A DNA stretch of 64,000 nucleotides from Eledone cirrhosa (lineage: Eukaryota): positions 264,120,001-264,184,000 of the forward strand of contig OZ024743.1 in the NCBI GenBank assembly GCA_964016885.1, in the 5' to 3' direction. Positions 47,056-62,696 of this stretch are shown here, one piece after another (position 1 is the first letter of the stretch; every line of letters begins with the position of its first letter). The position numbers and the translations under genes were made by a program. Under the pieces are notes generated by a model. That model had not been told where the DNA came from. It ran no database searches and worked only from the letters and a program-made list of their open reading frames with translations.

Positions 47056-47835
47056 ATAATCACTTATTTCCTAATGTTTGTTGAGTGAGTTGGAATTTGG
47101 CCGGAGTATCGGTCAAAAGCTTTCTCCGATATTGTATTTATTTATTTAATCTTGGTCCAACAGATTTGAATTTCCCGGTATAAGGTTAGACTTTCTTTGT
47201 TTATTTTTTTATATATGAATATTGATTGTTCCTTATATCTCATTCTGTTATTTTGCCCGAGAAAATATCTGTGTGTGTCATCAAATGTTGTTCACACATA
47301 GATTTTTTTCAATTTCCAATTGAGTTTTAGCACGTGGCCTGAATTCCTTTTAGAATTCATTGCCTTGCGCATGTATTGTTTTTTTGGCGGTAATTTACTT
47401 CCTCATTTTTGAATCAGTTTGAGCATTTCTTTCAGAACTGCTGGACTGGCAACCTGACAGATACCTCAGGCACTGATGAGGATTATCGCTAAATACTGAT
47501 GTTGGTTCAATATTAATATTATTGGGGCACCCACAGATGAATTATAGGAGCCCACTTGAATATATATCTATTGATGGTATACAAGCTCCTACATAAATTA
47601 GTATAATTTAACCCAAATTGTAGGAATCCTATAATGAAACGAGACGTCCGTCTGGGAAGAGATATATTCGATATGTCTCATATGAAATAATACAGCCAAT
47701 TTGCCACGCAATACTTTTAGTTAGCACCCCGAACGCATAATTAGGAATATAATCACTTATTTCCTAATGTTTGTTGAGTGAGTTGGAATTTGGACAGAGT
47801 ATCGCTAAAAAGCTTTCTCCGATATTGAATTTATT
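47056..47835 (+). mobile_element. PLE pLTR-like unit with an ~85-bp terminal direct repeat (period ~690)
   Basis: TATAATCACTTATTTCCTAATGTTTGTTGAGTGAGTTGGAATTTGG occurs at ~47057 and ~47748; (TA)n on both sides; internal hammerhead fold. Confidence 0.65.
47530..47656 (+). ncRNA. Hammerhead-like fold with variant core CAGAUGA
   Basis: Stem I CCCA/TGGG, CAGATGA, stem II ATTATAGGA/TCCTATAAT, GAAA, near-palindromic CGAGACGTCCG, GUC site. Confidence 0.68.
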
Positions 47836-48053
47836 TATATATATACATATATATATATATATATATATATATATATATATATATATATATATATATATAT
47901 ATATATATATATATATATATATATATATATATATATATATATATATATATATATATATATATATATGTAGGAGGTGAGTTTTATTGTAGTACAATAAAGC
48001 AATGCAGATATCGGATAAGAAGCACTCTACAGTTTGTAGGACTGGAGTATACA

Positions 48054-48398
48054 TAATATAAGATCAAAAGATGGTTAAAGGAGTTCCATGTATTTTATTA
48101 TGCGCATTTCAAAAACAAACATCATCATGCAATAATATTTGTGTTTTCATCAGATAAAACAGGAGAACATGATATGAAGGCTAAAAAACACTTGTGGATA
48201 GTGCAGTTTTAAATCAACATATATGTTGATATGTTGATTTAAAACTGCACTATCCACAAGTGTTTTTTAGCCTTCATATCATGTTCTCCTGTTTTATCTG
48301 ATGAAAACACAAATATTATTGTATGATGATGTTTGTTTTTGAAATGCGCATAATAAAATACATGGAACTCCTTTAACCATCTTTTGATCTTATATTAT
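48054..48398. repeat. Near-perfect ~170-bp-arm palindrome carrying a hammerhead on each strand
   Basis: 48054-48221 is the reverse complement of 48230-48398 (one mismatch seen); abuts (TA)n. Confidence 0.9.
48292..48358 (+). ncRNA. Type I hammerhead ribozyme (mirror copy at 48093-48159, minus)
   Basis: Stem I TTTTAT/ATAAAA, CTGATGA, ~12-bp stem II, GAAA, palindromic TGCGCA, AUA site. Confidence 0.82.
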
Positions 48399-49191
48399 AT
48401 ATATATATATATATATATATATATATATAAATGAGATGTATAGAGATTGTTTTAGCAAGAAGCTAACGGCATTCTATAACATATATGCGACTATAACGTC
48501 AAGATGGGAAAAGTAGTTAACGAAAGATTTAGGAAAAATAACTCAAACTCATCTCAAAAGAGAATCAGGATACAAATTCATCCACAGAATTTAGTAAAAT
48601 CCATGGAAAAATCTATAGACCTTTAACTCATGATAAAACAAAGTTTGAAACACTTATCCTTCAATATATATGTTACTAGATATTAATTCTTTATTATATA
48701 TATATATATATATATATATATATATATATATATATATATATATATATATATACATATATATATACATATATACATATATATATATATATATATATATATA
48801 TATATATATATATATATATATATATATATATATATATATATATAATAAAGAATTAATATCTAGTAACATATATATACATACAGATGCATATCAATGCTAG
48901 CAAATATATACGTTTTGTCTTAATAACAGTGTAGTTCAATGCATGGGGTTGCAGAACAATAATATAAGAGACGTAAAATAAGAAAATTATAAAATTAACT
49001 TACTTACTAAAATATCACTTCCAACTAATTAGTTTCTGGAATGGAGTAAATATATTTTCCGTAGACGTAGAGGCAGTGATTTTCTCAATGGCTAGGAATT
49101 CAGTCCACGCTTCGCTATTTCCTATCCACTGAATTATTTTTTAATAAGTTTCCAGTGTCCTCGCTTTGCCTGGAAAGTTACTTGAGAATAG

Positions 49192-49274
49192 ACTTTCCTG
49201 ACGACGGAATGCTTCTCCATATTATTCTTCGGAAAATATATTTACTCCATTCCAGAAACTAATTAGTTGGAAGT
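49192..49274 (+). ncRNA. Type I hammerhead ribozyme
   Basis: ACTTTC/GGAAGT, CTGACGA, GGAATG/CATTCC, GAAA, palindromic CTAATTAG, GUU site. Confidence 0.8.
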
Positions 49275-49714
49275 GATATTTTAGTAAGTAAGTTAATTTT
49301 ATAATTTTCTTATTTTACGTCTCTTATATTATTGTTCTGCAACCCCATGCATTGAACCACACTGTTATTAAGACAAAACCTATATATTTGCTAGCATTGA
49401 TATGCATCTGTATGTAAATATATGTTACTAGATATGAATTCTTTATTATTATCTCCAAATTATTTGTCGAGCAATATTGGCCATGACTGCTGCTACGGTT
49501 GTAGGCAGGCCGCTGTCTTATTAGCCAACCACTTTCCACTGATTGACCTCGATGTCACGTGTTCGATTCTTTTTGAATTTGCCACAGACGTAGAGGCAGT
49601 GATTTTCTCAATGGCTTGGAATTCAGTCCACGCTTCGCTATTTCCTATCCACTGAATTATTTTTTAATAAGTTTCCAGTGTCCTCGCTTTGCCTGGAAAC
49701 TTACATGAGAATAG

Positions 49715-60570: not shown

Positions 60571-60630
60571 TATATATATATATATATATATATATATATA
60601 TATATATATATATATATATTTATATATATA

Positions 60631-61330
60631 TGCTGGCGGTGCCCCAGCATGGTCTCAGCCGGATGGCTGAAACAGGTAAAAGGGTAAAAAAGTATATTTT
60701 TATATATATATATATATATATATATATATATATATTTATATATATATATATATATATATATATATATATATATATATATATTTATATATATATATATTTA
60801 TATATACATATATATATGTATATATATATATATATATATATATATATATATATATATATATATATATATATATATATATATATATATATATATATATATA
60901 TATATATATATATATGTATGTATGTATATATATATATATATATATATATATATATATATATATATATACATACATACATATATATATATATATATATATA
61001 TATATATATATATATATATACATATATATATATATATATAAATATATATATATATAAATATATATATATATATATATATATATATATATATATATATATA
61101 TATATATATATATATATATAAATATATATATATATATATATATATATATATATAAATATATATATATATATATATATATATATATATATATATATATATA
61201 TATATATATATATATATATAAATATATATATATATATATATATATATATATATATATATAAAAATATACTCTTTTACCCTTTTACCTGTTTCAGCCATCC
61301 GGCTGAGACCATGCTGGGGCACCGCCAGCA
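60631..61330. repeat. ~60-bp inverted repeat enclosing ~570 bp of (TA)n
   Basis: TGCTGGCGGTGCCCCAGCATGGTCTCAGCCGGATGGCTGAAACAGGTAAAAGGG at 60631 and its reverse complement ending at 61330. Confidence 0.9.
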
Positions 61331-62355
61331 TATATATATAAATATATATATATATATATAAATATATATATATATATATATATATATATATATATATATA
61401 TATACATATATATATGTATATATATATATATATATATATAAATATATATATATATATATTTACTATATACATATAAATCTATATTTAACGAAGGAAGTTA
61501 ATAGTTTTGTCTTGAGCTGATTTTAGAGCCAAAATTAATGGACTTACAAACGTGATTTCATCTCACTTTCATTTTCTCTCTTCCGTATTCATAAAACAAA
61601 AATCATATTTCACACATGCTATGTGTCATGCAAGCAAATCTGATTTTAAATCATATCTATAGAATACACTGTGCATTGCGTCCGAAGATTACTATATTTA
61701 TAATTAATTTTAATATCCATTTTTCAATTTAGCATAGATCTTTTCCGTCCTCTTATATTGAATACGCTTTTTCCGTAAAACATTTTCAATTGTGAATTTT
61801 GTCCTTCCATAATTTGAAACACGAATCAGGGTACATTGATAATAATCAGAATGCATTTTATACACAGAATTAGCGACTGGTTTTATGAAAATTGTGAAGC
61901 GGAACCCCCCACCCCCAACACACACTCAAAAAGCATCAGCTGACCTAAGTTATTGGATCAATTAAAGACAATGCAGGGCATTGATCTTGTCTATAAGCAA
62001 TATTGCTAAAACAGCGGTCATATTCCGATATTATTAGATATTCTCAGCGAAGAGTATTTACTGAACAAATTAGTTAGACGAAAACTTCCATATAGGTATC
62101 GGAAAGTGGAACGAAGTTATGCATTGATTATGTGTATCAATACAGACTGGATGTGAAACATCCCAAAGGAGTTTAGATTTCGATAAAAGTATGAGACGAG
62201 TTGCAAGAGAAAAGTAGAAATGAATCCAGTTGAAAAGCAAAATGACAGGTGATAATGTAAGGCAGTATATATATATATATATATATATATATATATATAT
62301 ATATATATATATGAAAATAACATTAAGAAAGATACTGATGTTACATAACCGTGTA

Positions 62356-62446
62356 TTCATAATAATTATTTCAACGGTTCTCTTATGCAATCCAAGATGA
62401 AATTTATGAATTTTTTGATGCTATGAGAACGGTATCTTCAGATGAA
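62356..62446 (-). ncRNA. Type I hammerhead ribozyme
   Basis: Reverse strand TTCAT-CTGAAGA-TACCGTTCTC...GAGAACCGTT-GAAA-TAATTA-TT-ATGAA. Confidence 0.72.
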
Positions 62447-62696
62447 AATCCGATATTGTTATATGTCGCAGGCAGAAAACAGGTCCCTCTACACGTGCAC
62501 CCGGTTGACATATAGTCTCTTCCAGTATTATAGGCTTTCTGATGAAGTGAAAAAAATAATTAAGTATTGCATATGATTGAACAATATATATTGTAGTCAG
62601 TATATGTAGACGATTATAATAGACACAGAAACGTGTTAAAGCAAATAAATTCCTTATCTCCGCAGATGTTTATATTTTCCATGGTGCAATAGTTGC

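Follow-up and report, generated by a model that had tools for sequence, protein, structure and literature searches.

Hydra-clade Penelope-like elements and non-coding hammerhead repeats in a (TA)n-rich region of the Eledone cirrhosa genome

The window analysed here is a 64,000-nucleotide stretch of the Eledone cirrhosa genome (assembly GCA_964016885.1, contig OZ024743.1, positions 264,120,001 to 264,184,000 of the forward strand), and all coordinates below are positions within it unless a genome locus is named. The 3.0-Gb assembly is rich in TA and CA microsatellites, and at 25.6-26.8 kb and 47-62.7 kb the window carries sequences related to Penelope-like elements (PLEs). These comprise fragments of coding PLEs and several families of repeat units that bear hammerhead ribozymes; how the latter are related to the former is the subject of this report. 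In the following list ORF is open reading frame, UTR is untranslated region, RT is reverse transcriptase and pLTR is the pseudo-long terminal repeat of a PLE.

25590-25787, minus strand: inverted, 5'-truncated pLTR copy of Hydra family f1, with the ~70-nt tail of that pLTR; the hammerhead core at 25722(-) is intact
25785-26516, plus strand: 5'-truncated f1 Hydra PLE ORF with thumb, CxCx5C linker and GIY-YIG endonuclease
26517-26752, plus strand: U26, the f1 3' UTR/pLTR, with a type I hammerhead at 26686-26721 that is sense to its own ORF
47056-47841, plus strand: U47, a non-coding 700-bp monomer plus a 93-bp repeat; hammerhead at 47530-47656
48048-48403, no single strand: U48, a fold-back insertion; each strand carries a hammerhead, 48290-48360 (+) and 48091-48161 (-)
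48430-48697, plus strand: U48b, a low-copy repeat piece, no hammerhead detected at the window copy
48842-49840, plus strand: U49, a non-coding 523-bp monomer family; hammerheads at 49192-49274 and 49715-49797
53427-54840, minus strand: 5'-truncated f1 Hydra copy, RT motif 5 to endonuclease, with a decayed hammerhead in its 3' pLTR
54839-55560, plus strand: U55a, a partial tandem of a non-coding ~485-bp monomer family; hammerhead at 55409-55492, upstream copy core-mutated
55585-56689, minus strand: U55b, a non-coding 546-bp monomer family; hammerheads at 55867-55941 and 56416-56490
58381-60573, plus strand: f0 Hydra PLE, 5'-truncated and frameshifted, with a long 3' UTR
62313-62513, minus strand: U62a, a hammerhead family; ribozyme at 62356-62446
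62512-62697, plus strand: U62b, a different hammerhead family lying head-to-head with U62a; ribozyme at 62534-62642

Coding elements, ribozymes and non-coding families

By their motifs and domain order, matched to the published definition, the coding fragments appear to be Hydra-clade PLEs. This clade is defined in the sections cited of Craig et al. (2021; PMC8557442) by a C-terminal EN+ and by RWK-type, DKT and CxCx5C motifs. Homologues, and open frames of 714-781 codons that occur naturally in the same genome (781 in f0), encode RT followed by a C-terminal GIY-YIG endonuclease; in five families YRDD lies at about amino acid 350-390 and VxY...Y[VI]G at about 580-660, and all five own-genome ORF families carry RxRW[KR], xDKT, CxCx5C, YRDD as well as a GIY-YIG-like domain at the C terminus. 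The CxCx5C linker is also visible in the window fragments. Pfam returned a single weak RVT_1 match (E=0.011) to one window fragment and nothing useful on the full ORFs. An earlier note on this DNA, made from the letters alone, had called the coding parts Naiad-type, which is the wrong clade, since the endonuclease is C-terminal, the motif is DKT and the pLTRs carry hammerheads, whereas in Naiads as described in the same source the endonuclease is N-terminal, the motif is DKA and canonical hammerheads are lacking; the preference for (TA)n and the tandem and inverted structure are shared with them. The single ORF of ~700-780 amino acids, the (TA)n insertion, the sense type I hammerhead in the 3' pLTR, the partial tandems and the inverted 5'-truncated copies with a tail at one end all resemble the Hydra clade as described there. 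Here f1 has a tail of ~70 nt and the non-coding passengers have tails of 100-125 nt, all longer than the 30-40 bp described, and the Eledone genome differs from the clade in its at least five intact families and its very high copy number. The supplement of that paper includes an Octopus bimaculoides Hydra family (Hydra-1_Obim), and the Hydra elements it lists all have sense hammerheads except for one inverted copy; the Eledone ribozymes that lie downstream of and adjacent to an ORF are likewise on the sense strand (17 of 17, 15 of these from f1). Coding-family ends lie at TA runs, and their 3' UTRs reach about 750-1000 nt. Intact members of families f2 and f4 (loci L001, L018 and L129) have long microsatellite tracts within the 3' UTR, and in f2 two different hammerhead variants flank the ORF. 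What looked like an f2/f1 chimera at L068 turned out to be just the missing 5' part of f1.

The hammerheads are real as motifs of sequence and predicted fold. A type I descriptor that tolerates long stem II loops, which a stricter initial descriptor missed, finds 10 type I sites in the window; in unselected genome it finds 37 above-threshold sites per 320 kb, compared with none in 320 kb of 3-mer shuffles, while an Rfam scan matched no hammerhead model at E<=5. Seven of the ten positions given in the earlier note pass the strict form (stem I starts 48292+, 49192+, 49715+, 55409+, 55867-, 56416- and 62356-) and 26686+, the U26 ribozyme whose stem I is reduced to 3 bp in the window copy, passes only a relaxed scan. 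Core mutations are present at 47530+ (CAGATGA) and 54926+ (CTAACGA) in the window, although the families of both are intact, and three further ribozymes (25722-, 48153- and 62539+) had been overlooked. The sites have the CUGANGA/GAAA core, three stems and NUH cleavage site of type I hammerheads and show covariation: compensatory changes, seen by eye, separate subfamilies in stems I and II (ACCCT/AGGGT versus ACCTT/AAGGT, and CCCA/TGGG versus TCCA/TGGA). Stem III is perfectly palindromic in 17 of 30 hammerhead families, in support of the statement that PLE pLTRs carry such ribozymes. A MAFFT alignment of ten hammerheads was not meaningful and was discarded. A core-like CTGAAGA at 60409 in the f0 3' UTR fails the type I descriptor. 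Minimal PLE hammerheads act as dimers (Cervera and de la Peña 2014; PMC4209133), and in the parts of that paper compared the type I fold, the palindromic stem III for dimer cleavage and the unpaired nucleotide beside stem II are as in Eledone, unlike the stem II loops, which here reach ~100 nt, and stem III, which here is often 4-5 bp; stem II is flanked by T.T here and often in published Hydra hammerheads (sections cited of PMC8557442). Fifteen intact-looking hammerheads of 10 families lie in 200 kb of evenly spaced 10-kb samples from the three largest contigs (L169-L188), from which a rough extrapolation would give ~2x10^5 intact-looking hammerheads per genome, that is, a number of order 10^5.

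U47, U49, U55a and U55b are multi-copy, non-coding, retrozyme-like families. Among 1,136-2,770 first-look candidates, 40 loci were scored for each. Near-full-length copies are about 90-100% identical (92-100% at the 40 U47 loci), and the monomers of 700, 523, ~485 and 546 bp, respectively, have at least four stops in every frame of both strands and, at the family level, one ribozyme in each. Copies occur as monomers, partial tandems, fold-backs and arrays, from dimers to multimers (one U49 array has seven full-length matches plus partial copies), and single insertions in (TA)n are scattered over many chromosomes. Partial copies share a common 3' end on the ribozyme strand and vary at their 5' ends. 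Circular folds of the monomers have z values of -10.8, -2.6, -10.1 and -5.3 (25 shuffles each). The (TA)n flanks, direct repeats and inverted repeats that had been described around the window units were all confirmed. In the window copy of U49 a partial tandem, 49054-49840(+), is joined to an inverted arm that carries the tail, 48842-49065(-); U55b consists of a partial tandem and an inverted piece, 56600-56689(+).

It could be argued that these units are orphan 3' ends, that is, long pLTRs of unsampled coding PLEs amplified through 5' truncation and tandem formation; the length of the coding-family 3' UTRs agrees with such an origin, and single copies of U48 and U62b do lie downstream of an ORF end, and for the short units U48, U62a and U62b an origin as 3' ends of coding PLEs is quite plausible. 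For the four larger families we regard it as unlikely: they run head-to-tail with a fixed 480-700 nt period and are free of ORFs between units, and 42/43, 21/22, 15/15 and 16/16 of their copies have no adjacent ORF.

Two 3' ends, fold-backs and the movement of the non-coding families

The 3' ends of f1 and of three non-coding families fall at two discrete positions downstream of the ribozyme cleavage site: about +61 and +180 nt in U49, +190 and +290 in U55b, +65 or +85 and +195 in U55a, and +42 and +114 in f1. When two copies are joined as a fold-back, one arm ends at the short position and the other at the long one. This holds for all eight U55b fold-backs, for seven of nine exactly in U49 (eight if one loose fit is counted) and for 11 of 15 in f1, where one more is a near-fit and three are complex; no short-short or long-long pair of arms was seen among the fold-backs of these families. 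From this arrangement it would seem that each arm of a PLE fold-back is primed at a different site on the template; the arrangement also agrees with two properties known from PLEs, namely the tail present at one end only (PMC8557442, sections cited) and the two internal RT start sites that define the tail of the Poseidon element PAc of Anolis, which also cleaves and extends both target strands in vitro (Frangieh et al. 2024; PMC11167929, parts cited). PAc belongs to another PLE clade, and the start sites in Eledone are deduced from genomic ends. That PLEs insert by target-primed reverse transcription is established. The short/long rule is genomic evidence for mobilisation of the putative retrozymes U49 and U55b by PLE machinery, and the PLE-type 3' ends and fold-backs support the earlier suggestion that retrozyme-like, non-autonomous repeats depend on a PLE helper.

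After 13 redundant loci were skipped, 154 of 162 junctions without a TA spacer joined copies of one family (87 tandem and 67 head-to-head). Two independent chimeric junctions of the f1/U55a type, again without a TA spacer, lie at window 54775-54845 and at L063:523-640; in the former, a 66-bp inverted pLTR piece of the f1 copy (54775-54840) is joined to U55a through 3 nt of microhomology and with no intervening (TA)n. These chimeras suggest template switching, with f1 as a possible helper of U55a. Contigs from two runs of one sample, and hence not independent support, cover 53.4-55.6 kb, and one of them has a joint matching the f1/U55a junction. Head-to-head junctions of two different hammerhead families number 2-3 of 70 (window 62313-62697 and L158:2642-2922), as would be expected if the arms of a fold-back may be copied from different RNAs.

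Very probably, then, the region is a pile-up, within (TA)n tracts, of 5'-truncated Hydra PLEs and of non-coding hammerhead passengers (retrozymes or non-autonomous PLEs) that would have moved as follows. A Hydra RT/GIY-YIG protein would bind the 480-700 nt monomers as tandem transcripts or as ligated circles and would nick one or both strands of a (TA)n run; reverse transcription would start downstream of the ribozyme at one of two internal sites ~70-125 nt apart and continue through the ribozyme cleavage site. If both DNA strands were primed, each start site would give one arm and the product would be a fold-back tailed at one end only. Palindromic stem III ribozymes probably cut the multimers as dimers. 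Of this scheme, the ribozyme on the element's RNA strand, the fixed 3' and variable 5' ends, the partial tandems and the fold-backs are demonstrated.

Several findings weigh against this reading. U47 has a single class of 3' end, with 21 single ends and no fold-back pair, and the only U55a fold-back does not fit the short/long rule cleanly. In a blastn comparison the window units shared no nucleotide homology with the pLTRs of four coding families. The scored loci are the best near-full-length matches, so the counts are biased toward young copies, and ribozymes and monomers were characterised from genomic sequence alone, cleavage and circularity being predicted.

Amplification as satellites at the DNA level, by unequal crossover or rolling circle with the hammerheads as passengers, would account for the multimeric arrays, and a DNA-level route is discussed in the portions cited of a recent preprint (Li et al. 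2026; bioRxiv 10.64898/2026.07.22.740005). The dispersed (TA)n insertions, with 3' ends that are fixed and 5' ends that vary, and the short/long rule are signatures of retrotransposition, and a satellite origin is very improbable as an explanation of the whole; such a route is unlikely for dispersal but could contribute to the growth of individual long arrays.

Near-perfect inverted duplications of 28-187 bp lie directly beside long (TA)n runs in four cases among 372 runs (window 60632-61329 and 48664-48875; genome locus L138:3314-3847 and 4044-5183) and possibly reflect fold-back repair at TA cruciforms. U48b terminates in 28-32 bp that repeat, in inverted orientation, the neighbouring U49 end on the far side of a (TA)n run. 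A similar nested inversion surrounds a TC/TA/GA run at 62698-63546, and short palindromic units in a mutually inverted arrangement lie between (TA)n runs at 46825-47047 and 51263-51520.

The apparent antisense resemblance to the coding frames

The earlier note had proposed that the strand opposite each ribozyme translates, with frameshifts, into a degraded look-alike of part of a PLE protein, and that the ribozyme RNAs could therefore pair with the coding RNA, either in cis as a long rod-like duplex or in trans with the helper mRNA. On this account they would descend from the antisense of a PLE ORF or have been selected to complement it. Look-alikes can indeed be picked out by eye: the 48-kb core, read in reverse complement, gives SSDKT, in U55a FKxR-x16-TxLS occurs with the spacing of the endonuclease, and U49 contains AYNRSS. 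There is also a route by which chimeras could arise, since an inverted ORF copy is often found immediately upstream of a pLTR. The by-eye look-alikes show no excess over composition-matched controls, however, and the AYNRSS and TGAI motifs are lost in divergent relatives.

The resemblance was scored on both strands by frameshift-aware Viterbi and Forward methods with profiles of 154 of 160 database proteins and, separately, of 34 own-genome ORF representatives. The controls were dinucleotide shuffles, a reversed profile, column-shuffled decoys (which proved conservative) and then a double control applied to 28 of 30 families, two being left out for internal inverted repeats or short length. 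Against dinucleotide shuffles there is a marked antisense excess (Fisher p=2.7e-4; U49 alone has z=4.9 against 60 shuffles), but the reversed profile gives practically the same value (p=3.2e-4) and the excess is thus compositional. Column-shuffled decoys left nominal antisense values for one profile (U55a 0.025, U49 0.041, and U47 0.05 by Viterbi), but for no unit with the own-genome profile, and across families the combined p is 0.61-0.71. In the double control three of the 28 families reach p<=0.05 in antisense (U55a 0.014, U49 0.042 and H13 0.042) and none in sense; the combined p is 0.29. Blastp hits at E<0.05 number four antisense and two sense with real proteins and four and three with reversed ones, and among 24 divergent relatives one antisense match (to a different protein region) and one sense match reach p<=0.05.

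Pairing fared no better at the nucleotide level. With eight units against seven Hydra ORF targets, plain and G-U-tolerant complementarity each gave antisense p<=0.05 in 3 of 56 comparisons, and sense in 1 and 5 of 56, where about three are expected; U26 against its own ORF gave p=0.64-0.79. A cheap-gap pairwise nucleotide alignment fell in the linear regime and was uninformative. When the UTR of a natural f1 copy is folded together with the final 1 kb of its ORF, 48 UTR bases pair with the ORF, compared with 45-108 for 12 shuffled UTRs, ten of which pair with it as much or more. Neither the rod in cis nor the pairing in trans is thus borne out, and no significant translated or nucleotide similarity stands above the shuffled and decoy controls.

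The antisense look-alike is instead likely a matter of base composition, U-rich ribozyme strands being set against A-rich ORFs. All 14 ORF pieces have a positive AT skew; on the ribozyme strand, six window units have values of -0.14 to -0.18, and the skew is below zero in 22 of 28 families (p=0.004). A U-rich strand has an A-rich reverse complement, which translates into K/N/I/R-rich peptides that resemble those of an A-rich ORF. The ORFs are also C-rich and so are five of the six units, none of these five being G-rich, which gives GC skew the wrong sign for base-pairing. Read in reverse complement, a U-rich stem I followed by CUGAUGA tends to give SSD or SSDK (TCA TCA GAT AAA), and this explains the DKT look-alike at 48 kb. 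The ribozyme strands predicted from the presumed antisense coding strand at 55.9 and 62.4 kb do carry hammerheads, but the rule works because the ribozyme strand is U-rich; in the 48-kb fold-back and at 62.3-62.7 kb there are ribozymes on both strands, which makes the notion of an opposite strand ambiguous, and at the latter place either prediction would have succeeded.

Recent derivation from antisense ORF sequence is largely refuted by these results, and the antisense account as a whole is very unlikely. Degraded pieces of true ORF were recovered in three of four cases at 30% substitution, and in one of four at 35% and again at 40%; the test loses its power at about 30-35% substitution, and an echo of great age would be beyond its reach. 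It seems highly doubtful that some retrozymes, U55a and U49 being the best candidates, go back to an ancient PLE fold-back insertion whose inverted ORF arm, lying antisense, would have gained or kept a hammerhead and would survive today as a structured RNA with a match more than 35% diverged; if they did, new ribozyme retro-passengers would repeatedly draw their raw material from antisense coding sequence. None of the literature titles and abstract openings surveyed describes PLE ribozyme RNAs derived from antisense ORFs, and the word 'antisense' does not occur in the portions covered of PMC8557442, PMC7229834 and the main text of the 2026 preprint. With the failure of the antisense claim no new design principle is shown.

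Neighbouring sequences and relation to known retrozymes

Outside the PLE-related parts, the first 45 kb of the window hold mainly fragments of RT and endonuclease, of long interspersed nuclear element (LINE) type as judged by eye, among them several decayed LINE-type copies (apurinic/apyrimidinic endonuclease and RT, by eye) between 7900 and 42800; two pieces of these were the decoy targets in the nucleotide complementarity tests above. A 72-bp minisatellite (9.9 copies, 96% identity) at 43523-44236 has no relation to the ribozyme units. A further repeat, flanked by (TA/CA) and bearing short inverted sequences at its ends, occupies 53106-53400; near 53300-53350 it contains a decayed segment that resembles a hammerhead, and the repeat has five matches in 320 kb of unselected DNA.

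Non-coding tandems with one type I hammerhead per monomer, self-structured, low in GC and coexisting with PLEs, are characteristic of the metazoan non-LTR (long terminal repeat) retrozymes, whose RNA circles are established (Cervera and de la Peña 2020; PMC7229834, sections cited), and the Eledone families share these properties. They differ in their PLE-type hammerheads with long stem II inserts, and their monomers of 480-700 nt are larger than the invertebrate circular RNAs of 170-400 nt given there and fall within the 51-972 bp of the Li et al. survey. That retrozymes are non-autonomous PLE derivatives has already been proposed in the same two sources, whose cited passages report no fold-back or two-end signature for retrozymes like that found here. 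Penelope-like families are described from Octopus vulgaris (PMC13282606), in the portion cited without mention of ribozymes or retrozymes.

The window units belong to the known retrozyme/PLE class as new members, set apart by their larger monomers and by an insertion fingerprint that is clearly of PLE type. A PLE helper of animal retrozymes has so far been proposed from co-occurrence and pLTR homology. In Eledone two non-coding families, U49 and U55b, share the insertion fingerprint of the coding Hydra family f1, and this makes the question of the retrozyme helper testable through defined RT start sites.

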